DNA of 64,000 nt from Candidatus Harrisonbacteria bacterium (GCA_016214655.1 JACROC010000002.1:3801-67800), one strand, 5' to 3'; numbered from the stretch's first letter, positions 27,269 through 44,750 are shown. Made by a program: numbers and translations. The notes: generated by a model from the sequence alone, not told the origin.

Positions 27269-27280
27269 AATTAAAAACAG

Positions 27281-29635: not shown

Positions 29636-29670
29636 ATATATTACTTCAAAATCTATGTTTTGTCAACAAC
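29636..29670 (-). promoter_or_regulatory. T1 cassette promoter + UTR CAGTTCGTTTAAAACTGAAG + GGAGG
   Basis: tgtcaa 29661-29666, atatta 29638-29643, exact 17-bp spacer. Confidence 0.6.
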
Positions 29671-29705
29671 CCGTAATGGTTCAATAGCTTGGAATACCCC
29701 AAACT

Positions 29706-30593
29706 ATGTATATGACATATTCAAATGACCCCCACTTGCCTCGGGTTAGAATGGAGGCAGTTCGTTTAGTTCGCTCCGGTTTGAGCACGGTAAAGGTCGC
29801 AAGGCATATGGGATATTCTCAAAGCGCTATTGTGAAATGGGTAGCCAAAGCTCCTACTGATGGTCGAATGATCATTCCTACTCAGTCATCTCGTTTCTGG
29901 ACACATCCGCATTCTTTGTCTGCTGAATTAGTGGAAACTATTTTGTCTTATCGACGAGAAAGAAATCAATGCGCGGAGATTCTGCATTATCGTTTGGCTA
30001 CAGATGGTTACCGAGTCAGCCTCTCCTCAGTAAAAAGAACTTTGCAAAGAAATCAGATGACTCGTTTCTCTAAATGAAAAAAGTGGCATCAATATCCGCC
30101 TCGTCCTCTGGCAGAAAAACCAGGGATTCTGGTTCAAATTGACACGATTCACGACGGCCAGGTTGGGGAGCAGCTATACATCTATACTCTGCTGGATGTC
30201 TGCTCCCGTTGGGCCTATGCCCTGCCTTCTTTGTGGATCAATACTCATCGCAGTTTGCAATTTGTGGAAAGGGCGAAGGAATTAGCTCCTTTTCCTTTCC
30301 AAACTTTCCAATCAGATCATGGCAGTGAATTTTCCAAATGGTTTACCAAAAGAATCGGGGAACGAAACATGGCCCATCGCCATTCCCGAGTCCGGCAGCC
30401 GAATGACAATGCTCACTTGGAAAGATTCAATCGGATCATTCAGGAGGAATGCATTTCCCGGATTCCCGGGTCATTATCTGTCTGGAAAAAAGAAATACTG
30501 GAATATCTCCGGTATTACAATGAGGAAAGGCCGCATATGGGGTTGGCTATGAAAACCCCGATCGATATTATTAAAACTATTCCAAGCTATTGA
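29706..30593 (+). mobile_element. IS481-family (rve/DDE) transposase interrupted by a single in-frame TGA at 30075-30077, likely a pseudogene
   Basis: N-terminal HTH; the same frame continues after TGA through ILVQIDTIHDG...SDHGSEF...NAHLERFN (DDE) to ...ERPHMGLAMKTP. No other frame change. Confidence 0.6.
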
Positions 30594-30737
30594 TTAGAAA
30601 ACGCAACCCCGGACTAAAGCCCGGGGCTTGTGGCTACGAGATGTCAAAATAAAAACCGCAAAGATTATCTACGACCCCACCGAACATTGTTAAAAGTAAA
30701 GTTATAAAAATATAAACGTCAAATTTGGTTCAAAAAA

Positions 30738-30765
30738 AGACGGCGGTGAAGCCGTCGAAATTGTG
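30738..30765 (-). terminator. gacggcttcaccgccgtc + T7 (minus strand)
   Basis: Ends a GC-rich roughly 125-nt minus-strand segment that has no ORF. Confidence 0.45.
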
Positions 30766-30858
30766 CCAATGGGTACTTTGCGATCCGCTGCGTTGAGGAT
30801 TTAGCTTCCACGCTAGGTTTGGCATCCCCCGAGCCAACTACCCTACGCCGTAATCCCC

Positions 30859-30893
30859 ACTGGTATAATGTAATATAACATACTGGTATAATT
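30859..30893 (+). promoter_or_regulatory. Two tandem extended -10 boxes TGGTATAAT
   Basis: Extended -10 boxes at 30862-30870 and 30884-30892, upstream of a 19-codon micro-ORF and the T2/T3-like sequence. Confidence 0.4.
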
Positions 30894-30907
30894 TATCAAG
30901 TAAATCT

Positions 30908-30947
30908 GTGTGCCATCGTGTGGGATGTTAGAACTTTGTTTGAGAGG
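30908..30947. repeat. T2-family element (degenerate copy)
   Basis: GTGCCATCGTGTGGGATG-TTAGAAC-TTTGTTTGAG. Confidence 0.4.
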
Positions 30948-31018
30948 AAGAATGATGCGGGTATCTATGTTCTCGTTTTCTGCCACACCCGTGATTCGCC
31001 ATATTTTATAAAAGAAAA

Positions 31019-31046
31019 AACCACCTAATGACGGTGGTTTGCAAAT
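31019..31046. terminator. aaaaaaccacc-taatgac-ggtggttt (bidirectional)
   Basis: 3' of lipoprotein gene 31075-31833. Confidence 0.5.
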
Positions 31047-31074
31047 TATATTTTATCTTTAAAGAACTTTTCCA

Positions 31075-31833
31075 CTACTTGCGAACAACGGCGAAACGAG
31101 TGCCTTTGGGCAAACCCCTAAAGAAATAACCAAAACCCACAAATCGCTTCTCGCCGCCAATACTGCCAAGATATAAATTTTCCCACTTTCTGGCATCAAT
31201 GTTATACCGGCCGCCATCTAAAGTAACAATCTCGCTCTTTTGCTGCTCATCAGGATACGCGACCCCAAACGCAAGAAGTTCTGCGGCGTTAGCAAAGCCA
31301 AAACCCAACTTTCCCAGCTCATCCTTAATTTCATCATCTTTCACATAATCTCTTACTGGGAAATTGTCCTTCGGCTGAGAACCCCAAAATTTCCTTGTCA
31401 CCCATTCATTGGGTTCTAATTCCCTAAAAATTTCTTCTTTTGAGTATCTCTTAAAAAAATCTCCGATTGTGGCAATATGAACTTCAATTCTTTTTTTACC
31501 CTTATTTCCAGCTTGTGCGCAGGCAGACTTAAAATTATTCCCTAAAGCATTATAACCACCCAAAAGATCCTCATCATCCGGAGGCAACTGCATATATTTT
31601 CCAACAACAGCAATTACTCTCCTGAAAGACTGGCTACAGTTGACTTCAATCGGAAAACCCTCGCTGATATCAACTCTTACAAATTCTTTCTTTTCTTGAA
31701 TCTCGGTTGAAGTTTTCAGCCCACATCCCGCTTGCGATATGGAAAAAGATAAACTGACAATGATCAGGGTTGGTAATCCCAAAAACCATTTGTTTCGATT
31801 AGTCGCCATCTGTTTCCTCCTTTCAAGGAACAT
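31075..31833 (-). CDS. Secreted lipoprotein-like protein, paralog of 36562-37515
   Basis: Signal peptide + SQAGC lipobox-like; shared C-terminal block AELLxFGxxYxD...RFxxVR with the 317-aa protein. Confidence 0.5.
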   Translation of the reverse strand: MFLERRKQMATNRNKWFLGLPTLIIVSLSFSISQAGCGLKTSTEIQEKKEFVRVDISEGFPIEVNCSQSFRRVIAVVGKYMQLPPDDEDLLGGYNALGNNFKSACAQAGNKGKKRIEVHIATIGDFFKRYSKEEIFRELEPNEWVTRKFWGSQPKDNFPVRDYVKDDEIKDELGKLGFGFANAAELLAFGVAYPDEQQKSEIVTLDGGRYNIDARKWENLYLGSIGGEKRFVGFGYFFRGLPKGTRFAVVRK

Positions 31834-31882
31834 TAACTACTGATAAATATATTAGCAGAAAATAAAAGTAAAGTCAAATAAA

Positions 31883-31924
31883 GTTGGGTCGGCAACTGAA
31901 TCAGATTAGAACTTGTTTAGTGGG
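31883..31924. repeat. T2 element directly upstream of TTGACT -35
   Basis: GGGTCGGCAACTGAATCAGA-TTAGAAC-TTGTTTAGTGGG. Confidence 0.55.
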
Positions 31925-31958
31925 ATTATGAAAAAGGCCCCACTTTTATGAGGCAAAT

Positions 31959-32264
31959 TTATTTATGAAATAAGAAGTAAACAACCCACATCGGTGTAAA
32001 AAATAATACTAACCAAAGTAAAAATGGTGCTATCTCTCTGTTTTTGTGTTTCATCATCTCATAAATATTAAGGCCAATATAGATCATGGTGGGAATGCAT
32101 ATAAGCCACAAAGGGGCAAAGTATCCTATCACGGGGCCAACTAATAAAGCCGAAAGAAGGAGTGCTATTAAAGGCCGATCTTGCTTTGAAGTCATTATTC
32201 CTCTCAAGGCTAGTAAGTTTTTGAAGGTGCCTAATAATATTAGTAGATTTCGCCGGAAGTTCAA
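31959..32264 (-). CDS. Small membrane protein (101 aa, 2-3 TM)
   Basis: Hydrophobic helices; T2 element upstream. Confidence 0.4.
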   Translation of the reverse strand: MNFRRNLLILLGTFKNLLALRGIMTSKQDRPLIALLLSALLVGPVIGYFAPLWLICIPTMIYIGLNIYEMMKHKNREIAPFLLWLVLFFTPMWVVYFLFHK

Positions 32265-32368
32265 GCGGTGATATATAGCAAACTCTTTGAAAAAGATTTG
32301 GAATTAAAAAAGTTAATGCGGAGAAAGCCGATAGAGAATGTGGCTCCAATTACAATAAAGAGTAGGCT

Positions 32369-32402
32369 GGGTCGGCAACTGGATCAAGTTAGAACCTGAT
32401 GG
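32369..32402. repeat. T2 element
   Basis: GGGTCGGCAACTGGATCAAG-TTAGAAC-CTGATGG. Confidence 0.55.
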
Positions 32403-32449
32403 ACAAAAATTATTGGGTAGGCTATATTATGAACTAGCAACTTTACCAA

Positions 32450-32842
32450 TTGAAATGGGTAATGATAGATAAAGTAGCGTTATGCGGAACGGGCGGCTTT
32501 TGTACCTCTATTCTACTAGGAGTTCTGTGGGGCATAGCAATATGGCCCATTAACATTTTTTGGCTGATTATGACTATGCTTGTTTTCGCTATCGGATTGG
32601 CTTTATTGATAGCAGCAACTAATCTGGCTTATCACAATGGATTTAAGCACAATCAACCCTATGCAACGATTGTTGCAATGATTCTCAAGGAATATATCAA
32701 TTTACTCAATATACACGGCGAATATTCAAAAGAAGAGAAAGAATTCCGAGATAGATTCCAAAAGAATCCGGAACTACTGAACCTATTAGACACTGCTAAA
32801 ATGACAAAAACTGTTTACTCAACAGCCCTACAAGACCCTTAA
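32450..32842 (+). CDS. Membrane protein (130 aa); only plus-strand gene of the island
   Basis: 3 TM helices. Confidence 0.4.
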   Translation: MKWVMIDKVALCGTGGFCTSILLGVLWGIAIWPINIFWLIMTMLVFAIGLALLIAATNLAYHNGFKHNQPYATIVAMILKEYINLLNIHGEYSKEEKEFRDRFQKNPELLNLLDTAKMTKTVYSTALQDP

Positions 32843-32870
32843 TAACGGGGTCTCTTTTTATTAAAACTAG

Positions 32871-32906
32871 GTGCCGTCGTGTAGGATATTAGAACCAGGA
32901 TAAACA
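32871..32906. repeat. T2-family element (degenerate)
   Basis: GTGCCGTCGTGTAGGATA-TTAGAAC-CAGGATAAACAC. Confidence 0.4.
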
Positions 32907-32963
32907 CAAATTGAGTTACCCCACCCCCAAATACACTATTTTGAAAAGAAAAACCGTTCAAGA

Positions 32964-33512
32964 TTAACGGTCATTCTCCTTAGAACGTATTTCGCTTGCG
33001 AATTTTTGTATAAATGCCTCATCGGCTTCCCTATATTCGTTGCTATCCTTTCCATAAAGTTTCTCGGCCTGCCTCCTGGCTTCGATATATATATTAAGCT
33101 TCTTTTTAAGAGATTCTGCACGTTCTTTGTCTCGTTGAATCCATAGTTGCATTGCCTCTTTATATTCTTTACTGTCTTCTCCTAATGCCTGAGCGGCTAT
33201 CATCGCCGCATCAGGATAATTGCGAGCTTCCATTGCCTGTTTATACATTTCTTTACCAAATTGCTTGCCTTGCTCTTCCGAAACCAATTCAACGTTTTCT
33301 AGTTCATATTTAAGTTCGACTGCTAAATAGTAATTACCGTGATTAGCAAGGTCTGTAATAACCTCCTCAGCCCATCTTTGAATCTCTGTAGCGGATATTC
33401 CTAACTCCACACCTTTGCGAATCGTAAAAGAGGGGCGGCCCATTTTTTTAATTTGTTCCCAAGATTGTTCCTTTGGCTTATCTTCTTTGTTAAACCTCTT
33501 ATCGGGATTCAT
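32964..33512 (-). CDS. Hypothetical cytoplasmic protein (182 aa), Lys/Glu-rich helical
   Basis: Intact ORF. Confidence 0.4.
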   Translation of the reverse strand: MNPDKRFNKEDKPKEQSWEQIKKMGRPSFTIRKGVELGISATEIQRWAEEVITDLANHGNYYLAVELKYELENVELVSEEQGKQFGKEMYKQAMEARNYPDAAMIAAQALGEDSKEYKEAMQLWIQRDKERAESLKKKLNIYIEARRQAEKLYGKDSNEYREADEAFIQKFASEIRSKENDR

Positions 33513-33583
33513 AAATACACATTATCATAAATAAACTTGTTATACACGTTCTTTTATTTGCTCCTTTCTAGTAGGGAAAATTA

Positions 33584-33612
33584 GAACCTATTTTGTGAGT
33601 GTTGGGGCGTTA
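33584..33612. repeat. T2-family element (short copy)
   Basis: GGGAAAA-TTAGAAC-CTATTTTGTGAGTG. Confidence 0.4.
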
Positions 33613-33616
33613 CCCC

Positions 33617-33696
33617 ACCCCGTGATTCACTATATTTCTTAAAAAGAAAAAGCCCCGAATGGGATTAAACCATTTTGAGGCTTCGGGGAAAATCAA
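33617..33696. repeat. T3 element: CACCCCGTGATTCACTATATTTCTTAAAAAGAAAAAG + hairpin with conserved loop
   Basis: Stem ccccgaa/ttcgggg enclosing loop TGGGATTAAACCATTTTGAGGC (inner AATGG/CCATT stem). Confidence 0.5.
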
Positions 33697-33922
33697 TTTC
33701 CCCGTATCATCTTGCTTATTCTACTTCGGGATAACCACCTCTTTAGGTAAATCTTTGCGCAATGCCTTGTTCCACTTTTCGGCACTGGCCTCATCCGGAA
33801 CAATAACAGTGGCTTTCCTATAAAAGTTCCCGGAACCTTCTTTCAATCTATACTTCGAATTCACCTCTACGTACACCAATTTTTCTCCTGAAGGAACGAC
33901 TTGTACAAAAACCTTCCTGGTA

Positions 33923-34177
33923 TTATTTACACCAATACAAGGAGGTGTCTCTTCCCCCTAAAATATCCAATTCTAAATACCAAGTACTAGGCAATCTATC
34001 ATATCTACTATATCGCATATCTGCATATCGTAATACCCTTGCCGACTGAACCACGAATTTCGTTTTCTTCTCAACCCCATAAGAATCACAGTTAATGAGC
34101 CCGCCGCACAAGACAAAACCGAAACATAGCATCAGGGATTTCATCTTCTTCACCCTTTCTCCTTCAATTTTCAACAA
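33923..34177 (-). CDS. Hypothetical signal-peptide protein (84 aa); may continue by frameshift into a 52-codon frame down to about 33715
   Basis: Lipoprotein-like N-terminus; downstream frame encodes LVYVEVNSKYRLKEGSGNFYRKATVIVPDEASAEKWNKALRKDLPKEVVIPK directly after the stop. Confidence 0.35.
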   Translation of the reverse strand: MLKIEGERVKKMKSLMLCFGFVLCGGLINCDSYGVEKKTKFVVQSARVLRYADMRYSRYDRLPSTWYLELDILGGRDTSLYWCK

Positions 34178-34199
34178 ACTAAATTCTAGTGTATATATT

Positions 34200-34245
34200 A
34201 CTTCAAAATTTATGTTTTGTCAAAAGAAAAAACCGCCTCAGCTTA
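34200..34245 (-). promoter_or_regulatory. T1 cassette promoter + UTR
   Basis: tgtcaa 34234-34239, atatta 34211-34216; preceded by terminator ccgcctcagcttacgctttggcgg (34249-34272). Confidence 0.6.
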
Positions 34246-34274
34246 CGCTTTGGCGGATACAAAATGAAATACGA

Positions 34275-35789
34275 TTAATCAGTAAATTTAATCTGTTTAT
34301 GCTGGGAGAGACAAAGGTAAAGCGCAACTGCAACGCAATCGGCTAGAAAACCCCTGCCGACTTTTTCATCATGCAGACAACAAGCGCGCTGATATGCCTC
34401 CGCAACTTTATTGCCCAAGCCACTCAAATGAGAGTCGATGATGGCTTTGTAAATACATTTAACAGTGGGAAAGCCCTGCACGAACTCGCTATTGTGAGCA
34501 ATACTCGTAGGCTTTCCGGCTGAAACAGCTAAATCTTCCTCGTAATACCGGAGAACATTCGTGGCTTTAGGATGTTTTGCAATTTTGCGATCGGTATAAT
34601 TAGAAAGGACATGAACCAACTGTTTCATTTCCACTAGTCTATCAACATCCTCACGCGTGGTTGCTCTAAGGACAGCAACCGCTTTCTGAAGGATGTCTTC
34701 CGTTTTCATTGTGCTTGATAAATCAAAAAGGTGTTGGCTTGCCACGACAGGAATCAGAAGTTCAATAATACCGTGATTGATTCTGCCCCCTCCCCGGTTG
34801 CGCAGACTTTCCTTCTGGGCCCGGAGAGCAAAATGGTATATCGGCGGCTGCCCATCTACACTATGCTGACGCACACTTCGTGCCAAATCTTCAAATGCCT
34901 CGCCGATGTTGATACCCCCTATTACAAAATACTCAAGTTTCAAATGCCGACTCACATTTCGATGTCTGGTAGTGCAACCGGTTTTATCCGATAGCGGCTC
35001 AAGTGCGCAAGCAAGCATTACTTGCCGGCCAGTTTCGCGAGGAGTTCTTACATCTTTCTGATTCTCCCATGCAATTTTGTAAAGAACATCCAGGTGACGC
35101 TCATCTTGTTGCTCATCCTCCTCCATAAAAATATCTGCATCGTATAAATCCTCAATCAGACGCCGCAGATCCGGGTTCAGCACAAGCATTTTTTCTTTTA
35201 TCTGAGCCGCGCTAAGCTTTGCTCCGCCAAACTTATCATTCGCCCGATGCAAAGCATCGTAACAATCAGCAAGCGCCAACATCCGACCATAAAAAGTAAT
35301 TAAAGCCTCCGTGGCTCGGGAAAAAGAATGAGACTTCTTCGGAAGTTTACTCGGATAACCATTAACTTGAAATCGGTGATGCCACAATATAACTTCTGCG
35401 GTAAAATCGAAAGTTCCCCTAAGGAGTCGATAACTGTCCATAACATGGGCTTTCATAACCCTAGTATCCTTAGCTGTCCATCCGCTCGTTTTTTCCAAAG
35501 TTGAAATGGGAGCCTGAGTTTTACCAATATCATGGAATACGCCAGCATACACAAGCGCTTTAACATCAAGATTCATAAACTTAGCTATTAACTCAAGCAG
35601 TAATGCAACACGAAGGCTGTGCTGGTAATGAAGGTGGGTTACAGAATTCTTGTTTCGAAGTGGAGCGAGCAACGATCTTACCTTTCTACGCTCATCACTA
35701 CTCACCTTCAAATCGCTTAAAATCTCGTCAAATCTTTTCTCGAGCCAGGTAGTATAAGCCGCATCGTTCTCTACGTGTATTTTGTCCAT
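34275..35789 (-). CDS. HD-GYP-type phosphohydrolase domain protein with uncharacterised 250-aa C-terminal extension
   Basis: GVFHDIGK (HD motif) and ILWHHRFQVNGYPS (HHExxDGxGYP-like). Confidence 0.55.
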   Translation of the reverse strand: MDKIHVENDAAYTTWLEKRFDEILSDLKVSSDERRKVRSLLAPLRNKNSVTHLHYQHSLRVALLLELIAKFMNLDVKALVYAGVFHDIGKTQAPISTLEKTSGWTAKDTRVMKAHVMDSYRLLRGTFDFTAEVILWHHRFQVNGYPSKLPKKSHSFSRATEALITFYGRMLALADCYDALHRANDKFGGAKLSAAQIKEKMLVLNPDLRRLIEDLYDADIFMEEDEQQDERHLDVLYKIAWENQKDVRTPRETGRQVMLACALEPLSDKTGCTTRHRNVSRHLKLEYFVIGGINIGEAFEDLARSVRQHSVDGQPPIYHFALRAQKESLRNRGGGRINHGIIELLIPVVASQHLFDLSSTMKTEDILQKAVAVLRATTREDVDRLVEMKQLVHVLSNYTDRKIAKHPKATNVLRYYEEDLAVSAGKPTSIAHNSEFVQGFPTVKCIYKAIIDSHLSGLGNKVAEAYQRACCLHDEKVGRGFLADCVAVALYLCLSQHKQIKFTD

Positions 35790-35815
35790 CTATATCTCCT
35801 TTTAAAAAGATCCAG

Positions 35816-35850
35816 TGTTATATTAACACTAAATTTGAAGGGTGTCAAAA
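35816..35850 (-). promoter_or_regulatory. T1-variant cassette promoter TTGACA-17-TAATAT
   Basis: tgtcaa 35843-35848, atatta 35820-35825; terminator ccgccaaataagcgg upstream. Confidence 0.55.
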
Positions 35851-35872
35851 GAAAAAACCGCTTATTTGGCGG

Positions 35873-36433
35873 TTAATGTTCTGATTCATTATTCTTATCT
35901 TCTAGACGCTGCCGATCCCTTTGATCATATTCTTGAGCAAGTTTTTGGGCTTTTGCTTTAAAATCCTCGCCCTCCTCAAGATCAACGATATAAGATCGTA
36001 TAGGTAAATCGCCAAGACAGCCAGTATCTCTTAGAAGACTATCGCTCTTTCTCCACCCAAAACTACTTATAAGATTCACACCGACTATCCCCTCGGTCTC
36101 ATAAAGACCCCTTATCTGCATATCAATAAATTCTTTCTCTAACTTCGAATCTTCAACTCTCCTCGAATCTATACGGCGCAATCGTTCTTCTTGGGCACCT
36201 CTGTCAATGTTTAGAAAAATAAGGACGCGCTCAGGATTATCAGTTGGTTGCTTTGGATACGCATAATCAGGAAACCCATATTGATAATCAGGTATCACAA
36301 AAATAACGGCATCAAGAACAAATGGGAATTTTCTTAATTTCTTTTCAAGTCGATCAAGATTAATCTGTATAGTGGGTCGTATATATGCAACATCTATTTC
36401 TTCAGTCGTCTTCCCATGAAGATTGTATACCAT
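35873..36433 (-). CDS. Hypothetical protein with nucleoside/nucleotide-kinase-like LID region but no full Walker A
   Basis: HGKTT near N-terminus; VLIFLNIDRGAQEERLRRIDSRRVEDSKLE resembles dNK/NMP-kinase LID. Confidence 0.3.
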   Translation of the reverse strand: MVYNLHGKTTEEIDVAYIRPTIQINLDRLEKKLRKFPFVLDAVIFVIPDYQYGFPDYAYPKQPTDNPERVLIFLNIDRGAQEERLRRIDSRRVEDSKLEKEFIDMQIRGLYETEGIVGVNLISSFGWRKSDSLLRDTGCLGDLPIRSYIVDLEEGEDFKAKAQKLAQEYDQRDRQRLEDKNNESEH

Positions 36434-36561
36434 CTATTTAAACCTTCTTATCCTAAATTACTAAACATATATTATTAAAAAGATATCTTTTTGTCAAAAA
36501 ACTGCTGACAAATAGAAATGCCCACACAGTAAACCGTGTGGGCATTTTTCCAGATGTCCCG

Positions 36562-37515
36562 TTACTTACGAAGGCCGACGAGACGACCTGCGGGGCCGCC
36601 CCAGGACTCAATTTCAAGCCAGAAAAAAGACAAGTTCCACTGGTCCCCGTCCCAGTAGAGATACGCGACACGCTGGCCACCATACCAGTCCTGCCAGACC
36701 GTTCCTGGAAAGATAAGATAATACTTGCCTTGCCATTCTTTGGGAATGAGATCTTGATGCTCCAGCAGATATTCGGCATGACGCTGGCTAAGATGAGCAT
36801 TGAGCTCCTTGGCTCTCTGCTTCATCACATCGCCCCTCACATAGGACTCGTTAGGCTTGAGGAACTCTACGATATCAGGAACAAACTGCTTACCATCGAA
36901 TGAGGTATCCTCAAGGAGCGTCCAGCCAGATTTAGTTTTATCATAATCGTACTTGTAGGACTCGCGCACAGCCAGGAACCGACAGCCCTCGTGCCACCTA
37001 CAGTCAAAACAGTTAAATTCCATGTAGCGCCCGCCAGAGCCCATCAAAAGATACGGCACTTTGTAATGATTGCGACGGGCATTCGGATCCAGCCAGACCG
37101 AACCCAGTGCGACTACCGAAACGACTGGCGGAAACTGATTCCAAATGTCAGAGTATTTCGCCCCAAAAACTAAAAGTTCGCGAAGCTCGGCGGGACGATA
37201 GCCCATCTTATCCAATTCTTTGAGCGCTTCCTCAGAGGTCAATACCCCGTTGAAATGCACTAGTCCAAGAACAAGATCAACCTCACCCTTCCGAATGGTT
37301 GGGAAGTTTTTGGTGGTGAAGTTATAATTTTGCCCGTCATACTTTCCCATGGCCACCATGGATTCCACCGAAAGATCATAGTTGACCGAAATTGGGAAAG
37401 TTTCCACTTGATTTTCAACTTGAATCTCCTCAGTGTCATTCGGCTCTTTACAAAAGACCAATGGAGAAAATAAAACAGTCGCCCCAAAAGAAAACATCAG
37501 GACAAGCTTTTTCAT
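36562..37515 (-). CDS. Secreted protein (317 aa), paralog of 31075-31833
   Basis: Signal peptide; shared C-terminal block ending GCRFLAVRE. Confidence 0.5.
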   Translation of the reverse strand: MKKLVLMFSFGATVLFSPLVFCKEPNDTEEIQVENQVETFPISVNYDLSVESMVAMGKYDGQNYNFTTKNFPTIRKGEVDLVLGLVHFNGVLTSEEALKELDKMGYRPAELRELLVFGAKYSDIWNQFPPVVSVVALGSVWLDPNARRNHYKVPYLLMGSGGRYMEFNCFDCRWHEGCRFLAVRESYKYDYDKTKSGWTLLEDTSFDGKQFVPDIVEFLKPNESYVRGDVMKQRAKELNAHLSQRHAEYLLEHQDLIPKEWQGKYYLIFPGTVWQDWYGGQRVAYLYWDGDQWNLSFFWLEIESWGGPAGRLVGLRK

Positions 37516-37557
37516 TGTTCCTCCTCTCTTCTTCAGTTTTAAACGAACTGTAAAGTG

Positions 37558-37592
37558 CTTATATATTACTTTAAAATTTATGTTTTGTCAAA
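37558..37592 (-). promoter_or_regulatory. T1 cassette promoter + UTR ACAGTTCGTTTAAAACTGAAG + GGAGG
   Basis: tgtcaa 37585-37590, atatta 37562-37567. Confidence 0.6.
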
Positions 37593-37676
37593 AAAATAAT
37601 CCAAATCGACGACCGGATCAAATTAAAATATATTTAGTGAGTAATAAAAAAGCCCAAAAATAATTTAGGGCGTATA

Positions 37677-37928
37677 TTACCAATTTACTCCTTTTTTAAG
37701 CACGCGATAGAACAGGGCGCCTAGAATCCCAAATAAAACGGGAACAATAAAAAATGCTGGGATGAATAACGGCGAAAAAACATGTGCATCACTTGTTATG
37801 ACCGGTGCTACGATGGAACCTATTAAGATAAGCGATGTAATAGCGATATTTCTACCCCTACATTGCACTTTATATCCCACAAGCACACCTAAACACAGAA
37901 GAAAAACCAACAAAAGCAACCAACCCAT
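37677..37928 (-). CDS. Small membrane protein (83 aa, 2 TM)
   Basis: Hydrophobic. Confidence 0.4.
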   Translation of the reverse strand: MGWLLLLVFLLCLGVLVGYKVQCRGRNIAITSLILIGSIVAPVITSDAHVFSPLFIPAFFIVPVLFGILGALFYRVLKKGVNW

Positions 37929-38034
37929 TACATACCCCCAATAGGATTAAAGAATGCTGTTTATATAGTATCACGCAAAAAAAATCTGTCAATGCAAATA
38001 AAAACCGCCTTTGTGGGGCGGGTTTATTTAAGTT

Positions 38035-38202
38035 TCTTCAAAACCCATTTCTTTCCGTTTTTATCAGTTAAAATAACTTCGTCCGGCCATTCCGAATACG
38101 GCCTTGAATAAGCTTCAGCCAATACATCAGCATTCAATCGCACTAATTCTTTGAGATCTTCCCGGAGTGCATCCATGACATCCCTTCTCATTTTAAAGAA
38201 CT
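38035..38202 (-). CDS. Small ORF (56 aa) with terminator aaacccgccccacaaaggcggttttt
   Basis: ATG with upstream AGGGAT; MRRDVMDALREDLKEL...; not in the >=60-aa ORF track. Confidence 0.3.
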
Positions 38203-38336
38203 ATTTAAATAGTTTATAATTTTAAAATTAAATAAGTCAAATAAAAAATATAAAACCCTACATTTACGTAGGGTCATTATCAGATTTATTTTCTGAATTA
38301 TCGCCGGTCGACGGTAAATTGGAGGGTGTCTCATTT

Positions 38337-38813
38337 TTATTTATCATTGTCCTTTTTCTTTCTGACTTTTTCTAGAATATCCGAACGAACATAAACATAT
38401 TTATCCCGTGGCAGGAACCAAGGTATTAAGGCACGGAGTAATTTATTTCTAGGAGCAGAAGCCGCTAAAACGCCATTTTTTTGAAAACTGACTACAACGC
38501 TTTCATTATTTACTTCAATTGAACCGATGAGATTATCCCCTAATACTGCTAAGAAAAAAGGGTTGTCCACGATGCTTACATAATTTTCACCTGCTACCCT
38601 AACCTTCATAGTCATACTACTGGTATATACATTTAAAACCGTTCCTTGTAGTAAAGCACCGCCATTACCAATGGCACTAACCCAGACAGTAACGGTAGAC
38701 TTATGGACCAACTTATTTAAATTGTTTAAATCGTCCAATTCTTTTGCAAAAATATTGGAAGAACAAAATAAAAATAGTCCGATGACCATAACCATCTTTT
38801 TCTTCATTTCCAA
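38337..38813 (-). CDS. Secreted hypothetical protein (158 aa)
   Basis: Signal peptide MVMVIGLFLFCSSNIFA. Confidence 0.4.
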   Translation of the reverse strand: MEMKKKMVMVIGLFLFCSSNIFAKELDDLNNLNKLVHKSTVTVWVSAIGNGGALLQGTVLNVYTSSMTMKVRVAGENYVSIVDNPFFLAVLGDNLIGSIEVNNESVVVSFQKNGVLAASAPRNKLLRALIPWFLPRDKYVYVRSDILEKVRKKKDNDK

Positions 38814-38887
38814 CCTCCTTTTTCAATGAGCATTCTCTGCTTTTCAGCAGTGTTGATATATTAACATAAAATTTTTATAAATCAAAT

Positions 38888-38927
38888 CTGGATCGGCAAC
38901 TGGAGCGGGTTAGAACCTGTTTGGTGA
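38888..38927. repeat. T2 element
   Basis: TGGATCGGCAACTGGAGCGGG-TTAGAAC-CTGTTTGGTG. Confidence 0.55.
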
Positions 38928-38970
38928 GGTTATAAAAAAAACCGCTGGGCGAACCAAGCGGCTGTTTTTA

Positions 38971-39153
38971 TCAAACAAGTGCAACTTGAAATTGATTTTT
39001 ATCGTCTGTATAACCTCGAATTTCAGCAACTTGCTTCGCACTACCATCTCTAGATGTTGAACAAAGATTGCAAGTTCCCATACGAATTTTATTGGGAGGC
39101 ACTTCTATACCCACTTTCTTTAAGCATCCAACACAATAAGTATGTATACTCAT
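38971..39153 (-). CDS. Small zinc-ribbon protein (60 aa)
   Basis: CVGC...CNLC four-Cys arrangement. Confidence 0.4.
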   Translation of the reverse strand: MSIHTYCVGCLKKVGIEVPPNKIRMGTCNLCSTSRDGSAKQVAEIRGYTDDKNQFQVALV

Positions 39154-39220
39154 TCCTTTTCTCGCTAATAATGTTCTGTAACTATATTATTCTCTAATCA
39201 AAAATAAATCAAATAAATTT

Positions 39221-39258
39221 AGGTCAGCAACTGGATCGAGTCGGAACCTGTTTAGTTG
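39221..39258. repeat. T2 element
   Basis: AGGTCAGCAACTGGATCGAG-TCGGAAC-CTGTTTAGTTG. Confidence 0.5.
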
Positions 39259-39288
39259 AGTCATAAAAGAAAAAAGTCATTCGCGCGA

Positions 39289-39780
39289 CTATTGATTCTC
39301 TCTGACTTGATTATTATCTTTGAAGTCTTGATACAAACCCGAAGATTTATCCTCATTAAACCAATAATTTTTTTCATTAGGATTGATTGAAATAAGGCTA
39401 CGAACTAATTGGTCTTTGGTGCAACAGAGTGAGGTTCGTTTGCCGTATCGAAATCTGTACGTTTTCTGCCAAAGTTTTGCCGTCTCTGTCACGGGCTCTT
39501 CAACTATGACTGGTCCCCAAAAATGGAGTCCTAATCTGCAAAGAAATTTTATTTCCTTATCGTCTGTATTTAAACCACCAGATTCTAGCAAATGGCTTCG
39601 TGCCTCATCCATGAAAACAATAGTGAAAATGGTGAGCAAATACATCAAAAGCCAAAAAATTAAGATTCCCTTCAATCCCCAGACTAAAACGATAAACGCC
39701 ACCAGAAGCCAGTCTTGTAAACCAGCTGGTCTCGTGGAAAGTATTAATTTAACTAACTTCATTTCCCATCTCCTTTTCAA
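39289..39780 (-). CDS. Membrane protein (163 aa)
   Basis: 2 TM helices near N-terminus. Confidence 0.4.
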   Translation of the reverse strand: MKRRWEMKLVKLILSTRPAGLQDWLLVAFIVLVWGLKGILIFWLLMYLLTIFTIVFMDEARSHLLESGGLNTDDKEIKFLCRLGLHFWGPVIVEEPVTETAKLWQKTYRFRYGKRTSLCCTKDQLVRSLISINPNEKNYWFNEDKSSGLYQDFKDNNQVRENQ

Positions 39781-39834
39781 CGAGCGTTAGGTGCTGATAA
39801 ATATATTACTAAGAAATAAGAATAAAATCAAACC

Positions 39835-39873
39835 TGGGTCGTCTAGTGAACAATGTTAGAACTTGTTTGATGA
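39835..39873. repeat. T2 element (variant)
   Basis: TGGGTCGTCTAGTGAACAATG-TTAGAAC-TTGTTTGATG. Confidence 0.5.
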
Positions 39874-39920
39874 TTTGAAAAATAAAAACCGTTGAGCAAA
39901 TCAACGGTTCCTGAATTCTA

Positions 39921-40343
39921 TTATTCAATTACCTGCGTCATTCCCTTTCCCGTCTTTCCGTGATCCCAACCGGCGCCTTCAACATTCTTTTCCGAATGGA
40001 GGTGAATTTCTAGGGAAATCACCCGCCAACGCGCATTAATGCCATTGTCCCGCATCACAACATGCGACCACATCTTCTCCTCCCCTGAAACATCTTTGAA
40101 AAGATGTACACAATCGGAATAATCATTACATCGATATGCTTCCATTTTTAGTTCTTTAGAGTCATTTTTCTCAGTAATCAAAGTCCAATTATACCGGTCA
40201 TGCATCAATACGCGAACGATATTCTCAACTTTCTCCTCCGAAATTCTCGAGATCCTTTTCATTTCTTGCCGCGTCACTGTATAAATAGTAGATAAACACA
40301 AGGCAATACACATCAAAACTAAAACCCTATAAAGATTTTTCAT
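39921..40343 (-). CDS. Secreted hypothetical protein (140 aa)
   Basis: Signal peptide. Confidence 0.4.
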   Translation of the reverse strand: MKNLYRVLVLMCIALCLSTIYTVTRQEMKRISRISEEKVENIVRVLMHDRYNWTLITEKNDSKELKMEAYRCNDYSDCVHLFKDVSGEEKMWSHVVMRDNGINARWRVISLEIHLHSEKNVEGAGWDHGKTGKGMTQVIE

Positions 40344-40460
40344 CGCCCCTCCTTTGCTTCCCCTTATTTAGTACTATTTAAAAATTACCACAATATATTT
40401 ATTCTGTCAATTAAACGTACCGGCGAGTTCAATAAGTAAGTGCACCATTTGGTAAAAAAG

Positions 40461-40754
40461 TTATTTCTTACTGACATCGATTATCTCCTCCCAAAACATG
40501 GTGGCGCTATTCGTAGGATCACCTTCACCATTAATACCGCAAAGTTCCACACCCCCTTCGCTGATGCCGCGCACTACCAATTGCTGAATTACTTCAATGC
40601 TTCCATTTCCCTTTCGCCTGGTAACTTCTACCATACCTTTTTCAAGAGATTCTTCCGACAAGAAAATCTCCAAGGATGCTTGAAAAATTAGGCGAAGGCG
40701 CTCACGTTTTTCTTGATCAGATTCTTTTTGGGGACCGCGTTCAAATTGACTCAT
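40461..40754 (-). CDS. Hypothetical protein (97 aa)
   Basis: Intact ORF. Confidence 0.35.
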   Translation of the reverse strand: MSQFERGPQKESDQEKRERLRLIFQASLEIFLSEESLEKGMVEVTRRKGNGSIEVIQQLVVRGISEGGVELCGINGEGDPTNSATMFWEEIIDVSKK

Positions 40755-40801
40755 TTATAAAATAGGGATCATTATGATGAATAATATTAAAACTTCTTTA
40801 A

Positions 40802-41695
40802 TCAATCTCGAATTAACATCACCCCAACAATCATAATAGCAAAAAGCAGTGCTTTTTTGGCAATTGCCCAACCATCAATTTCCTCTCTAAATACACCCGG
40901 CAGATTTTTTGATAAAAACCTGGCATAAAATACCAGAAAAAATGGCGTGAGCATCGAAATGCTCTTCGCCATACTTACTGAAGCAAGCGCAATCGCGTAA
41001 CTTTCGGAAACAAAGGCAATAAAGGTGAATGTTTCCTCAGCCGCAAAAACCGGAAACATTTGCCTGAAAATGTTGACGTTAGCTATAATGTCACTTCTTG
41101 TGCGTTGTGGAATTAAGAAAAGCAAAGCCAGCAAAAGCGCCGTTCCCCCTTCCCCAACAAGCACAGTACCCAAATTCACTCCTTGTCCAAAAAGATATTT
41201 GATCAACACCCCCTCAAATGAAAGAATAAAAGCCGCCAATCCAATATACCAGAAAGCCTTGCTGAATCGAAAATCTTCTTTCCAACCTCTTAAACTCAAA
41301 AGCGTGCTGCTCAATATAAGCAATCCGATACCAACATATTGAAACAAAGTCAGAACTTCACCGACAATAAAAAAGGCCAAGATGGGAATGAAAATTCTCC
41401 CCAACGAGAAAAAGGAAATGGCAATAGAAGTGTCATCGCTTTGCAGTCCTTTATAGTAAGGATAAAGATATATAATATTAATGAAGCCCAAAAGAAATAA
41501 AATCGGGAAAACAGCCGCCGACGGCATGACTGGCTTAAAAAAAATAAAAACTAATGGGAGAAACAAAAGATTAAATAAAGAAGTGTAAAATGCGAGAGTG
41601 GTTGGATTTTTAAATTTTTGATTAACTAAAAAATTATCTAAAACGTTGGACAGGGCATAAAAAGCCGGCGCTAAAAATGCAATCAACAGCCACAT
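40802..41695 (-). CDS. EamA/DMT-superfamily transporter (10 TM)
   Basis: Two 5-TM repeats, 297 aa. Confidence 0.6.
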   Translation of the reverse strand: MWLLIAFLAPAFYALSNVLDNFLVNQKFKNPTTLAFYTSLFNLLFLPLVFIFFKPVMPSAAVFPILFLLGFINIIYLYPYYKGLQSDDTSIAISFFSLGRIFIPILAFFIVGEVLTLFQYVGIGLLILSSTLLSLRGWKEDFRFSKAFWYIGLAAFILSFEGVLIKYLFGQGVNLGTVLVGEGGTALLLALLFLIPQRTRSDIIANVNIFRQMFPVFAAEETFTFIAFVSESYAIALASVSMAKSISMLTPFFLVFYARFLSKNLPGVFREEIDGWAIAKKALLFAIMIVGVMLIRD

Positions 41696-41736
41696 AAGAA
41701 AATTATAACACGGTAAGAAGCAATTTTATTTACCCC

Positions 41737-41813
41737 GCCCCAAAACTCACCGTATTTTGAAAAAGAAAAAGCCCCAGATGGGATAAAACCATATAGGGCT
41801 TTTGAAGTTGCTT
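41737..41813. repeat. T3 element with conserved hairpin loop
   Basis: ...GAAAAAGAAAAAGCCCCAGATGGGATAAAACCATATAGGGCTTTTG. Confidence 0.5.
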
Positions 41814-42177
41814 CTTTCTCCATTGCTTCAAAAAAGTTGATTATGCTTCCCTAGCATAAAACCTGCGACATCTTTGTATTCATTCCATTGTTTTCTGACC
41901 TTACTCTTTAAAATAGCGGGTATGGTAATTGGCCAATAAACTACGAACATCACAGCTGTTAAAGCAGTTTCCATTCTCATACCCCCTCTTCCTTTTGAGT
42001 TTATACTTCAGAGTACTGCGTATATAATATATTAAAATAATCCTTTTGTTAAAAAAAGAGCCCCGGTACTATAAAAGCTACTGGGGGAGGTGCCTGCTAC
42101 CCCCGCTCTCGAACAGGAACCTCAATATATTAATATCATATCGTTGTTAATAAAGTCAATTAAAAAAACCGCCCTTA

Positions 42178-42456
42178 TTAAGTGATTTCACGCAACATAT
42201 CAACTAAAACAGGGTCTTCTATATATCTCCAAAATCTGGGCAAAGGAGCGTAATAGGTTCGATTCCATTCGTCTCCAGAACAGGAGCATGGCAAAAATGG
42301 ATAAACGGTAATCAGTTGTTTCGTTTGAAATCCTTTGAGTAAAGGAAGCAGCTCTTCCGGCTTTAATCGGGTGCGAGCTTCCAATTCGAGAGAACTCTGG
42401 ATCCCGCCTTCTTTTAAAGCGTGAATCAGCCTGTCCACGGCCATTTTCTTTTCCAT
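42178..42456 (-). CDS. Hypothetical protein (92 aa)
   Basis: T1 cassette promoter. Confidence 0.4.
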   Translation of the reverse strand: MEKKMAVDRLIHALKEGGIQSSLELEARTRLKPEELLPLLKGFQTKQLITVYPFLPCSCSGDEWNRTYYAPLPRFWRYIEDPVLVDMLREIT

Positions 42457-42496
42457 TCTCCTTCCTTTTTCAGTTTTAAACGAACTTAAAAGTGCT

Positions 42497-42530
42497 TCTA
42501 TCTTATTTCAAGATTTACTATCTGTCAAAA
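42497..42530 (-). promoter_or_regulatory. T1 cassette promoter TTGACA-17-TAAGAT + UTR AAGTTCGTTTAAAACTGAAA
   Basis: tgtcaa 42523-42528; terminator ccgctaaagcgtaagctgaagcgg upstream (42536-42560). Confidence 0.6.
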
Positions 42531-42571
42531 GAAAAACCGCTTCAGCTTACGCTTTAGCGGTTCTATTTAAT

Positions 42572-42916
42572 TCAAAACACTACGGTCCGCACCACTTCCG
42601 AATATCCGATCATTCCTTGATTTGAACCATGAGGATTCAATAAAACCCACTCGAGATATTTCTTATAAGCCTCCTCACGACTTATTTTTCCGAGAACAAC
42701 CACATTCATTTGCTTTGAACCGCTACAATTAAAAATGATGCGATAATCATCTACCTTTTCCCACTTGACGTCCCCGCGCGTTCCATGAACTTCAGATAAG
42801 TCAGTTGTACTAGAGCTGGGATAAAATTTACTCATAAACCGCCTCTTTAACTCTGGGTTCGCGTTTATTTCATCCAGGAATTTTTTAATTCTCTTATCAT
42901 AAAGTCTCACAATCAA
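42572..42916 (-). CDS. RelE/ParE-family toxin-like protein (114 aa), no adjacent antitoxin
   Basis: N-terminal KKFLDEINANPELKRRFMSKF and C-terminal GDVKWEKVDDYRIIFNCSGSKQMNVVVLGKISREEAY fit the RelE/ParE pattern. Confidence 0.4.
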   Translation of the reverse strand: MIVRLYDKRIKKFLDEINANPELKRRFMSKFYPSSSTTDLSEVHGTRGDVKWEKVDDYRIIFNCSGSKQMNVVVLGKISREEAYKKYLEWVLLNPHGSNQGMIGYSEVVRTVVF

Positions 42917-43008
42917 CTCCTATTTATTTGTAAACTGTCTTGATAAAGTGTATTTCAAAAGCGCTCTATAGTCAACTTTCATATTCTAGAGGATACTAAA
43001 GTCAAATT

Positions 43009-43047
43009 TGGGTCACCTAGTGAATAATACAAGAACCTATTTAATCG
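43009..43047. repeat. T2 element (variant)
   Basis: TGGGTCACCTAGTGAATAATAC-AAGAAC-CTATTTAATCG. Confidence 0.45.
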
Positions 43048-43086
43048 AATTGTAAAAGAAAAAAGCGCGATTCATCGCACTTTTAG

Positions 43087-43353
43087 TTACCTCACCACAT
43101 CCCGAACTGCGGCAACAGACTCAAGTTCATTCTCGAAGAAACACCCCCCTTTCAATCCTTGCTCGTCTTGAAAAGCCACTGCATAAATAAATTCGCCGCT
43201 ATGGTCACCTCGCGCTACATTCATAACATAACCAACTCTGCCGAATAATTGCCGGCGCTCCCTGCTGAAGAAAAACTTATAAAGAAAACTGACATTGCGA
43301 ACTCGAACTTCATCAAGTACCTCAAAACGCGCTGTTTTCTGCTGTCCCATCAC
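43087..43353 (-). CDS. Hypothetical protein (88 aa)
   Basis: Intact ORF. Confidence 0.35.
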   Translation of the reverse strand: MMGQQKTARFEVLDEVRVRNVSFLYKFFFSRERRQLFGRVGYVMNVARGDHSGEFIYAVAFQDEQGLKGGCFFENELESVAAVRDVVR

Positions 43354-43416
43354 TACTCCTTATAGAAATATGCTATTCACTATATTACTAAGAATAAAAA
43401 ATAAGTCAATTGTTTT

Positions 43417-43450
43417 TCGAGTGAATAAATAGGTCTAGAACCCGCTTCAT
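43417..43450. repeat. T2 element (degenerate)
   Basis: TCGAGTGAATAAATAGGTC-TAGAAC-CCGCTTCAT. Confidence 0.4.
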
Positions 43451-43485
43451 AAATACATAAAAAAGCGATATTAAATATAGCCCTA

Positions 43486-43821
43486 TCAATCTCCAAATTT
43501 TACCAACTTGTCACCCCCTGAAAGAACATAGTCGGTTGTCACTACAAGAATCTCTCCTATAAAAATCTGAGACTTGCCATCTTCTGCACTTAACACAGAC
43601 ATTCCCGCCTTTCTTTTCAAGATATTCACCGGATTGCTTTCGTTTGGACCTATCGAAAATACGGTAATCGTATCATGTTTAGAAATACGGAGCCCCTTTG
43701 AATTCATAAAATTCCTGAGGCAGGTTATATTATCCCCGTCTATATATGTAACCGTAAAACACTTTCTTTTGTGCTCTAAAGTAATAACATTTGTCTTATG
43801 AGAATTCTTTTTAATACTCAA
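43486..43821 (-). CDS. Hypothetical protein (111 aa)
   Basis: Intact ORF. Confidence 0.35.
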   Translation of the reverse strand: MSIKKNSHKTNVITLEHKRKCFTVTYIDGDNITCLRNFMNSKGLRISKHDTITVFSIGPNESNPVNILKRKAGMSVLSAEDGKSQIFIGEILVVTTDYVLSGGDKLVKFGD

Positions 43822-43992
43822 GAACTCACTCCTTATATATCAATTAACTAAGAAAAGACTAGCAAATCTGGTATGGTTTGTCTAACGGAAAATGTTACAA
43901 CTGAAATAATGAAAACGTAATTTATTGATTTATTAAAGATTTTTTATTAGAATATGGTCAGAATAAAACCTACCTTAAAAAAGGAATACAAT

Positions 43993-44124
43993 GAAAATGA
44001 ACTGGGTGGCATTTACTGTTGTCTTCTTTGCCTTTCTTGCGGCCACCGGCAATGTACTTTCTGGATTGTTATGGGGTGTGGCTCTCGGATTACTATTTGC
44101 CAATACAAAAAGCAAATAACATTG
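43993..44124 (+). CDS. Small membrane protein (43 aa)
   Basis: AAAAAGGAATACA-ATG; MKMNWVAFTVVFFAFLAATGNVLSGLLWGVALGLLFANTKSK; terminator ccgctcatatcttgagcgg + T8. Confidence 0.4.
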
Positions 44125-44167
44125 TCCCAATCTCTCCGCTCATATCTTGAGCGGATTTTTTATTTTT

Positions 44168-44240
44168 ACACCGCCTCGCTACTCGCTATATTTCTTAAAA
44201 AAAGCCCCGAATGGGATTGAACCATTTAGGGGGCTTTGGG
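44168..44240. repeat. T3 element
   Basis: CACCGCCTCGCTACTCGCTATATTTCTTAAAAAAAGCCCCGAATGGGATTGAACCATTTAGGGGGCT. Confidence 0.5.
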
Positions 44241-44585
44241 ATCAACTGCCAGATCTTCAGGCAACGATACGAAAATTTAGCCAAGTCGGCGGCTTACCGT
44301 TCCATAATTCATCAGCGGTCAGCGACGGAAGAGAAAGCTCTTGAAATTCGTCTTCTCCGCTCTTTTTGGAAAAATACTGGATGACTGCCCCCGTCCCATC
44401 AATTCTTTATTTTTTTAGAATGAACTTCCTTCCTATATCCGATAACCACTGCCGTGGATTCTAATATACTCGAGGATGATATTACATTCGTCCCAAATCT
44501 TTTACCGCGAATTTACATCCGGCAATTTCTTCAAAAATCTTATCTTAAAAATAAATTAAGTGGTAAATCTGGTATAATATAATAA

Positions 44586-44750
44586 ATGAGCAGAAAATCA
44601 CTTATCTGGATTAGTATGCTTTTGGGCTCAACAATCGGGGGCTTCGTCCCGATACTCTGGGGCGGAGATGCACTCTCCTTTTCCTCGATACTTCTAAGCG
44701 GCATCGGAGGGATTCTTGGCATCTGGTTCGGTTTTAAATTTGGAGAATAA
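44586..44750 (+). CDS. Small membrane protein (54 aa), leaderless-like (TGGTATAAT 7 nt before ATG)
   Basis: MSRKSLIWISMLLGSTIGGFVPILWGGDALSFSSILLSGIGGILGIWFGFKFGE; extended -10 at 44566-44574. Confidence 0.4.
   Translation: MSRKSLIWISMLLGSTIGGFVPILWGGDALSFSSILLSGIGGILGIWFGFKFGE

Follow-up and report, generated by a model that had tools for sequence, protein, structure and literature searches.

T2, an oriented intergenic DNA element at gene junctions of a variable island in a Candidatus Harrisonbacteria chromosome

Introduction

The PeSL cassettes of T4-type phages are repeated terminator-promoter modules that lie before ORFans and, through homologous exchange, mediate the shuffling of modules (Arbiol et al., 2010, PMC2839356; Comeau et al., 2014, PMC4122927). 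Here we describe T2, a short intergenic element repeated within a variable island of the chromosome of an uncultured Candidatus Harrisonbacteria bacterium, a member of the Parcubacteria in the candidate phyla radiation (CPR). The DNA analyzed, referred to below as the window, is the whole stretch of 64,000 nucleotides (nt) of GCA_016214655.1 (JACROC010000002.1:3801-67800), and positions are counted from its first letter. On the best-supported reading, the PeSL regulatory cassette would be the nearest described analogue of T2. Both combine a stem-loop terminator and a near-consensus sigma-70 promoter in a short composite intergenic module repeated before unrelated ORFans. PeSL modules are concentrated in hyperplastic regions, as T2 is in the island, and where close relatives differ by an insertion, deletion or replacement the break falls at a module, as was found here when loci L003, L023 and L024 were compared with L008. 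The host of T2, however, is a bacterial chromosome and not a phage, and T2 is an additional conserved block between terminator and promoter, which also occurs without either of them and has been kept across distant lineages.

Integrons offer a second comparison. As in an integron, co-oriented short sites part single genes, mostly of unknown function and some of them reversed, a HicAB pair lies by the L001 site, and array length and cassette content vary between close strains (window array, L008 array, and L003 against L008). In contrast to integron sites, T2 has neither the imperfect-palindrome hairpin nor the GTTRRRY/RYYYAAC pair, and no IntI lies nearby; moreover, the T2 cassettes have their own promoters and terminators, and T2 is present at only some junctions. 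On Acinetobacter plasmids, gene modules that are found in different contexts are flanked by pdif sites, which are XerC/XerD dyads of 28 bp that alternate in orientation. T2 shares with these sites the bounding of discrete gene modules by short conserved sequences, and differs from them in that its copies are asymmetric and all direct. Literature searches found no integrons, cassette repeats or comparable motif described in Patescibacteria/CPR.

T2 is a discrete, oriented element confined to a variable island

T2 is a separate unit of double-stranded DNA with a defined orientation, about 36-40 base pairs (bp) in length and not palindromic. On the strand of the genes it reads YAAACARGTTCTAA-N5-TCCAGTTGCCGACCC, that is, two blocks of fixed length around a variable 5-nt stretch, and weak direct repeats (GCAAC, GGAAC and AGAAC) recur in it at a spacing of about 10 nt. 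The 17-mer GGGTCGGCAACTGGATC had four matches in the window at three or fewer mismatches, against 0.07 expected. A T2 profile (nhmmer) was built from window and metagenome copies and recovered six solid copies from the window, with E-values of 1e-9 to 3e-5, all of them on one strand and within 12 kb (Table 1). The same search found no T2 in the remaining 51 kb; nothing outside 30.9-43.5 kb scored better than E 0.24. The core heptamer TTAGAAC occurs 13 times on the plus strand and twice on the minus strand of the window, and eight of these 13 occurrences lie within 30.9-39.9 kb.

A first-pass annotation of the window had counted ten copies of the motif, which are not equivalent. Six of these stand as solid copies. 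Copy 33569 (copies are named here by their refined starts) is a half copy, and copy 43421 is degenerate, with a score at noise level; its resemblance to the subtype of copies 39834 and 43009 was recognized by eye. The remaining two, 30910 and 32871, form a separate pair of B-type elements (GTGCCRTCGTGTRGGATRTTAGAAC) that are identical to each other at 22 of 25 positions, have only the TTAGAAC core in common with T2 and were missed by its profile. Both B-type elements sit where gene orientation flips, one by a broken insertion sequence (IS) and the other by the reversed gene 32450-32842.

The island that holds all T2 copies starts after a tRNA gene and has a lower G+C content; its right edge was set by comparison with locus L029. 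Its genes, around 25 in number, are small and almost all encoded on the minus strand. Each is equipped with a promoter and a terminator of its own, and most match no Pfam or PHROG family. The window also includes the RNase P RNA gene, five tRNA genes and ordinary housekeeping genes. Relatives of the window genome were picked via GreA, and in the closest ones (L011, L013 and L029) both the island and T2 are absent. Exact-sequence look-ups of the window lipoprotein matched no record. T2 was not found upstream of housekeeping genes, as a generic promoter feature would be, either in the window or in the core contigs of the relatives.

Table 1. Positions of T2 copies and of other features in the window (and one copy of D5 outside it)
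Feature	Position	Strand	First-pass start	Details
Variable island holding all T2 copies	25000-44750	.		Starts after tRNA-Gln (24927-24998); lower G+C; right edge approximate
T2, subtype A	31885-31923	-	31883	E 1e-9; reads CACTAAACAAGTTCTAATCTGATTCAGTTGCCGACCCAA on minus (gene) strand; terminator 31954-31937 just upstream; promoter 31877-31849, 8 nt downstream
T2, subtype A	32367-32403	-	32369	E 3e-8; exact 17-mer; no adjacent co-oriented -35; other edge abuts plus-strand promoter 32400-32428 (TGGACA-17-TATATT) of reversed gene 32450-32842; co-oriented TTGAAC-16-TAATAT about 130 nt off (read by eye)
T2, subtype A	38889-38926	-	38888	E 4e-8; TTGATT-16-TAATAT from 38885, 4 nt downstream
T2, subtype A	39222-39258	-	39221	E 1.5e-7; core TCGGAAC in place of TTAGAAC; TTGATT-17-TAATAT from 39212
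T2, subtype A'	39834-39872	-	39835	E 5e-7; right block TTCACTAGACGACCC; terminator 39912-39884; promoter from 39831
T2, subtype A'	43009-43047	-	43009	E 3e-5; TTCACTAGGTGACCC; terminator 43084-43061; TTGACT 43005-43000, 4 nt downstream
T2, truncated	33569-33596	-	33584	E 0.02-0.07 (nhmmer); left block and GGTTCTAA core only; follows D5 element
T2, degenerate, A'-like	43421-43447	-	43417	E 2.8; GGTTCTAGA...TTCACTCGA; about 4 extra bases; adjoins promoter 43409-43382
B-type element	30910-30934	-	30908	Between D5 element and broken IS
B-type element	32871-32895	-	32871	Between D5 element and reversed gene 32450-32842
Sigma-70-type promoter of lipoprotein gene 31075-31809	31849-31877	-		TTGACT-17-TAATAT; abutted by T2
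Further promoters abutted by T2 copies	38885, 39212, 39831, 43005, 43409 (starts)
Shared promoter/5'-UTR module	28350, 29666, 34223, 37591, 42528 (hexamer starts)	-
D5 element	30979-31014, 32916-32951, 33610-33645, 41730-41765, 44166-44201; L001 3920-3950
Terminators with conserved loop	33647-33689, 41766-41808, 44199-44241			Two-step hairpin (GCCCC..ATGG-GATTAAA-CCAT..GGGGC)
Broken IS	29706-30593	+
Block absent from L029	45550-51770
ECF-type sigma factor gene	51191-51745			True start about 51745
tRNA-Arg(ACG)	13687-13782

Similarity between loci stops at the edge of T2

A scan of 185,579 species-representative genomes gave a single T2 match, in a Saccharibacteria-labelled metagenome-assembled genome (MAG; locus L001). 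In one metagenome scan, the true loci were L003, L004 (the same as L009), L005, L007, L008 and L010 (the same as L001), counted as seven in our analysis, together with two chance hits. A further locus, L015, was fetched via an 80% homolog of the window lipoprotein and carries two T2 copies; as it was fetched by protein and not by motif, it confirms T2 independently of the pattern scan. L008 contains a second array, with six co-oriented copies (L008a to L008f) among small, mostly unassigned minus-strand genes. T2 is about 85-95% identical across lineages in which no DNA similarity between core genes could be detected, and the core genes common to L004 and L008 are only about 68% identical. The motif is thus conserved while its neighbors are not. 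The first-pass annotation had proposed looking for a co-occurring DNA-binding protein; a protein comparison gave no such candidate, since no island protein of the window recurs in other T2 loci. No T2 was found in phage and plasmid collections (two IMG/VR scans with no hits, and no match in INPHARED or PLSDB).

Comparison of these loci revealed breaks in synteny at the element. L003 and L008 are 92-94% identical over 1.3 kb, which comprise SppA and a 91-aa gene, and cease to be similar precisely at the GGGTC end of T2 (L003:1328 = L008:7920). Beyond that edge, L003, L023 and L024 carry an L004-like gene, and L008 carries five further T2-separated cassettes. At one chromosomal locus, a single T2 copy in some strains corresponds to a six-copy array in another. 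The conservation of T2 itself is sharp-edged across flanks and lineages: L008c and L008d are identical over a 34-nt core with unrelated DNA on either side, window copy 39834 and L015 copy 1 agree at 21 of 22 positions of spacer and right block within unrelated flanks, and L005 and L007 have the motif alone in common. A unit consisting of T2, promoter, lipoprotein gene and terminator (window 31036-31923) was found in L015 and L016 with different neighbors on both sides, at 84% identity as measured on promoter, gene and terminator (31036-31879). Reversed genes lie between co-oriented copies (between 32871 and 32367 in the window, and by L008b), which indicates that the orientation belongs to the array and not to the neighboring gene.

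Our favored reading, held tentatively and at a little less than an even chance, is that T2 is a cassette-junction element where units of promoter, open reading frame (ORF) and terminator are gained, lost or exchanged. T2 would mark the junctions between such self-contained accessory-gene units and would be recognized as DNA, and exchange at or between copies would insert, delete or replace the adjoining unit; a one-copy locus could in this way grow into an array of co-oriented copies parted by unrelated genes. The agent could be either a dedicated site-specific recombinase or homologous exchange between repeated copies, as in the PeSL cassettes. Since T2 is neither a promoter nor a stem-loop and is sharp-edged across distant lineages, its own recognition by some factor is implied. 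The first-pass annotation had offered a recombination or attachment (att)-like site at cassette boundaries as its second choice, and the breaks at the edge of T2, the correspondence of one copy to an array of six and the identical copies within unrelated flanks all speak for it, if indirectly; from these we infer recombination at T2 itself.

Several observations weigh against this reading. No recombinase other than the broken IS was found in the window by Pfam searches of the listed island ORFs (at least 50-60 aa) and of 20 larger flanking ORFs, nor among the scanned proteins of L001 and L008. Neither excision products nor circular junctions or empty sites were observed. Only around 10 of the roughly 24 island junctions carry T2 or a relative of it, and about half of all T2 copies abut a -35 box. 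T2 differs from lox, FRT, dif and attC sites in having neither dyad symmetry nor a hairpin; RNAalifold gave zero consensus pairs in 17 T2 copies. The variable 5-nt spacer is linked to the upstream side in L003/L008 and looks linked to the downstream gene when the window is compared with L015, so that no single crossover point fits all comparisons. The linkage of T2, promoter and gene kept between the window and L015 is what a regulatory site would also predict. Finally, most copies outside the window came from a pattern scan and are a biased sample.

A stronger version of the cassette-junction reading, which we regard as unlikely, is that T2 serves an undescribed cassette-integration system of CPR bacteria, an integron-like platform that would recognize T2 without the need for a hairpin. 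A recombinase whose gene lies elsewhere would take up ready-to-express units and shuffle them at an asymmetric site of 36-40 bp, and the subtypes (A, A', the L008 type and perhaps B) would match different recombinase specificities.

The 91-aa gene by the first L008 copy (L008 8050-8325, also present in L003, L023 and L024) is an orphan TerS-like gene in a chromosome. At 72-80% identity it matches a small gene that immediately precedes the large terminase gene in phage contigs (L018-L022, L025-L028 and L032), which extend up to about 45 kb and include several shorter fragments; no T2 was found in the parts of these contigs that were examined. At the L001 site, a HicB-HicA toxin-antitoxin pair (L001 3369-3921) lies immediately upstream of a junction formed by the intergenic element D5 (see below) and T2. 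Two T2 copies are split by small perfect hairpins at different motif positions, one of 21 nt in L015 (7665-7725; TCTCG-CCAAA-CGAGA context) and one of 18 nt in L005 (884-932; TCGAG-TTGAG-CTCGA).

The position of T2 relative to promoters is not fixed

In the window, the order along the gene strand is the terminator of the upstream gene, 7-10 nt, T2, 4 or 8 nt, the -35 box, the promoter, the 5' untranslated region (UTR) and the gene, with -35 boxes of TTGACT or TTGATT followed after 16-17 nt by TAATAT (TATGAA at 43009). This order holds for copies 31885, 38889, 39222, 39834 and 43009, loosely for 43421, and fails at 32367. The pattern TTGAYN-N16-18-TAWTAT has 14 matches in the window, 12 of them on the minus strand at 28.3-43.4 kb, within the island. 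It had been claimed that each copy abuts a TTGACT-type -35 box. This proved correct for copies 31885 (8 nt), 38889 (4 nt), 39222 (8 nt), 39834 (4 nt) and 43009 (4 nt) and for the degenerate copy 43421, with TTGATT in three of the abutting boxes, and incorrect for 32367, 30910, 32871 and 33569. Outside the window the gap to the -35 box is 7 nt in L008f, 10 nt in L003, 10 nt in L004 and 11 nt in L001. Over all loci, the gaps are thus 4, 4, 4, 7, 8, 8, 10, 10 and 11 nt, and then about 30, 60 and 130 nt. The intergenic spaces of the island measure only about 150 nt and are fully packed, so that whatever separates terminator from promoter is necessarily in contact with the two; T2 lies near TTGAYT boxes because it sits at the 5' edge of promoter-bearing units in these spaces.

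A different arrangement was observed at other loci. In L008a and L008c-L008e, T2 is not next to a -35 box; a terminator hairpin follows it after 6-60 nt, and the hairpin's T-run runs into an extended -10 promoter; in L008c-L008e, T2 is bracketed by two terminators. The copies of L004 and L008a begin only a few bases after the stop codon of the upstream gene. In L008b, L015 copy 1 and L007, T2 lies between convergent genes and no promoter follows. The extended -10 promoters of L008 (TGnTAnnnT; 3870-3900, 5930-5990 and 6570-6620) come directly after hairpin and T-run, and at least one L008 gene (3296-3874) looks leaderless.

These arrangements bear on whether T2 is a regulatory site. The first-pass annotation had preferred a class I activator site or UP-like element, and five or six window copies do lie at about -40 to -80 of a sigma-70-type promoter, as such sites do (for example CRP at -61.5). 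However, the position of T2 is not fixed, its promoter-proximal block (TCCAGTTGCCGACCC), unlike an A/T-rich UP element, is rich in G+C where it faces the -35 box, terminators intervene in L008 and many copies are followed by no promoter. An unfixed and unphased distance is not the geometry of a class I activator, and that proposal is not supported. A more general form, in which a regulator at T2 activates, represses or insulates the adjacent promoter and T2 travels as a control region, was considered improbable. It would account for the five or six window copies and for those of L001, L003, L004 and L008f that lie 4-11 nt upstream of a TTGAYN box, for T2, promoter and gene staying together in the window and L015, and for the GCAAC/GGAAC/AGAAC repeats, whose spacing could suit tandem binding. 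Against it stand the unphased spacing to the -35 box, which ranges from 4 to 11 nt and then reaches 30, 60 and 130 nt, the hairpins that part L008 copies from the promoter and the strong copies without a following promoter (L007, L015 copy 1, L008b and 32367). In addition, the T2-linked genes have no common function, and a 36-nt asymmetric site kept at such identity across lineages so distant would be unusual for an operator. A regulator-binding role is possible for the promoter-adjacent copies.

T2 might instead be a promoter itself, with GGTTC as -35, a 17-nt spacer and CGAC as -10, read by an alternative sigma factor or a foreign polymerase and serving as a second promoter for the downstream gene. 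The two blocks of fixed length around a variable 5-nt stretch, the GGTTC-N17-CGAC spacing, which is like that of extracytoplasmic function (ECF) promoters, and the ECF-type sigma factor encoded in the window would all agree with it. We nevertheless consider this extremely unlikely. The supposed spacer is itself highly conserved, GGTTC is unlike the AAC-type -35 of ECF promoters, and no T2-like sequence lies upstream of the sigma factor gene. Terminators follow the motif within 6-60 nt in L008, the next gene is convergent in L007, L008b and L015 copy 1, and no IMG/VR phage contig matched. Scanning for GGTTC-N17-CGAC detected no other co-located sites and none upstream of the ECF sigma gene, and an ECF-type promoter was rejected. 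So were a sigma-54 promoter (by eye, the GG/GC spacing is unsuitable) and, with no T2 in IMG/VR, INPHARED or PLSDB, a phage promoter or attP. Coding potential was also discarded, as by eye all frames contain stops or are not conserved.

T2 has no conserved secondary structure

Single-strand DNA folds of six window copies had z-scores of -0.45 to +1.2 and were no better than shuffles, so that T2 is not attC-like. Compared with the attC boxes RYYYAAC and GTTRRRY, the T2 core RGTTCTAAY fits only at GTT and AAC and does not match the boxes; the G of the core is not conserved on the plus strand (ATTAGAAC in many copies). The other defining feature of an integron, IntI, is missing as well, none having been found by the Pfam searches of the island and flanking ORFs described above. 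A structured RNA was rejected with the RNAalifold result and with Rfam 15, which gave no match at the gathering score or at E up to 5. The only attC-like shape was seen in L008c and L008e (L008 5990-6105 and 7400-7525), which have the same 60-nt extension; its single-strand DNA fold is an 80-nt imperfect hairpin (z -4.4) closed by AAGTTCTAAC and GTTAGAACTT.

The lack of conserved structure and of any Rfam match also counts against T2 acting at the RNA level, as a linear signal in transcripts that read through the array or carry T2 in the 3' UTR (for example for processing, for boxA-like antitermination or as the target of a small RNA). Such a role would be consistent with the polarity of T2, which is that of array transcription, with the copies of L004, L008a and L008b that lie between a stop codon and the next hairpin, and hence in a 3' UTR, and with the L008c-L008e copies enclosed by two terminators. 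The window copies, however, come after the T-runs of terminators, and copies 32367, L008f and L003 follow a divergent gene, where no sense transcript is expected. Taken together, this makes a signal in RNA decidedly unlikely.

Comparison of T2 with REP elements and other repeats

Near-identical units of 34-40 nt with sharp edges and unrelated flanks, a favored site a few bases past the T-runs of terminators, and subtypes common to different genomes could also be produced by a self-propagating or domesticated repeat that inserts after terminators without taking part in the movement of genes. Repetitive extragenic palindromic (REP) elements and their composites (BIME), which are associated with RAYT transposases, resemble T2 as extragenic units of about 35-40 nt after gene ends, with sharp edges and subtypes. 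REPs are palindromic and spread genome-wide, whereas T2 is non-palindromic and, in the sequence examined, confined to variable regions; with neither a palindromic stem nor a genome-wide extragenic spread found, a REP element was rejected. No RAYT-type or other transposase was seen for a REP-like repeat in the wider sense, none of its copies lie in the 51 kb of window core genome or in the core contigs L011, L013 and L029, and selfish spread alone would not explain a strain-level gene replacement exactly at the edge of T2. We therefore hold a REP-like origin to be very unlikely.

Two further mobile-element candidates were rejected. T2 is not the terminal inverted repeat of an IS or transposon: it has no inverted partner, all copies are on one strand and there was no match in the plasmid and phage collections. 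The only transposase remnant adjoins a B-type element and not T2; it is the broken IS, which lies on the plus strand within the minus-strand island and consists of a helix-turn-helix ORF and an ORF for an rve_3 integrase core, its middle part having been lost. A tRNA-derived att repeat was excluded in turn, because T2 does not match tRNA-Gln in its 3' part. The A' subtype (copy 39834, and also L015 copy 1) is identical over 10 nt (GGGTCGTCTA) to the 5' end of this tRNA, probably by chance.

The island contains other repeated intergenic modules: a D1/D4/D6 promoter-UTR family, a D5 family and a D9 terminator family. Several island promoters share an 80-90-nt module of promoter and 5' UTR (GTTCGTTKAAAACTGAAG...GGAG) before unrelated genes. 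D5 is a second conserved intergenic element, with AAATATAGTG-N10-GGGGTGGGGTAA on the gene strand, and lies directly after terminators. A GTTCTAA core follows three of the window D5 copies and the copy of the Saccharibacteria MAG at 13-45 nt. One terminator is present in three copies as a conserved two-step hairpin in which the loop, too, is conserved, a feature not usual in plain terminators. Outside the island, a block encoding a dual-specificity phosphatase, a MacB/HlyD-like pump and the ECF-type sigma factor is absent from the closest relative, L029, in which GreA is directly followed by MsrA. The tRNA-Arg(ACG) gene of the window has a length of 96 nt and so contains an insertion or an intron-like extra segment.

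Implications for the variable genes of CPR bacteria

CPR bacteria are host-dependent and have very small genomes, and little is understood of the ways in which they acquire and diversify accessory genes, surface-exposed genes and genes of unknown function. As a conserved junction element of Harrisonbacteria-like, Saccharibacteria-labelled and other uncultured lineages, T2 would provide a sequence handle for variable arrays in metagenomes. In this role, T2 would be the bacterial-chromosome counterpart of the PeSL shuffling of phages, and it would allow the enzyme or regulator by which it is recognized to be sought by experiment. Were it only a regulatory site, T2 would still define a cross-lineage regulon of ORFans.

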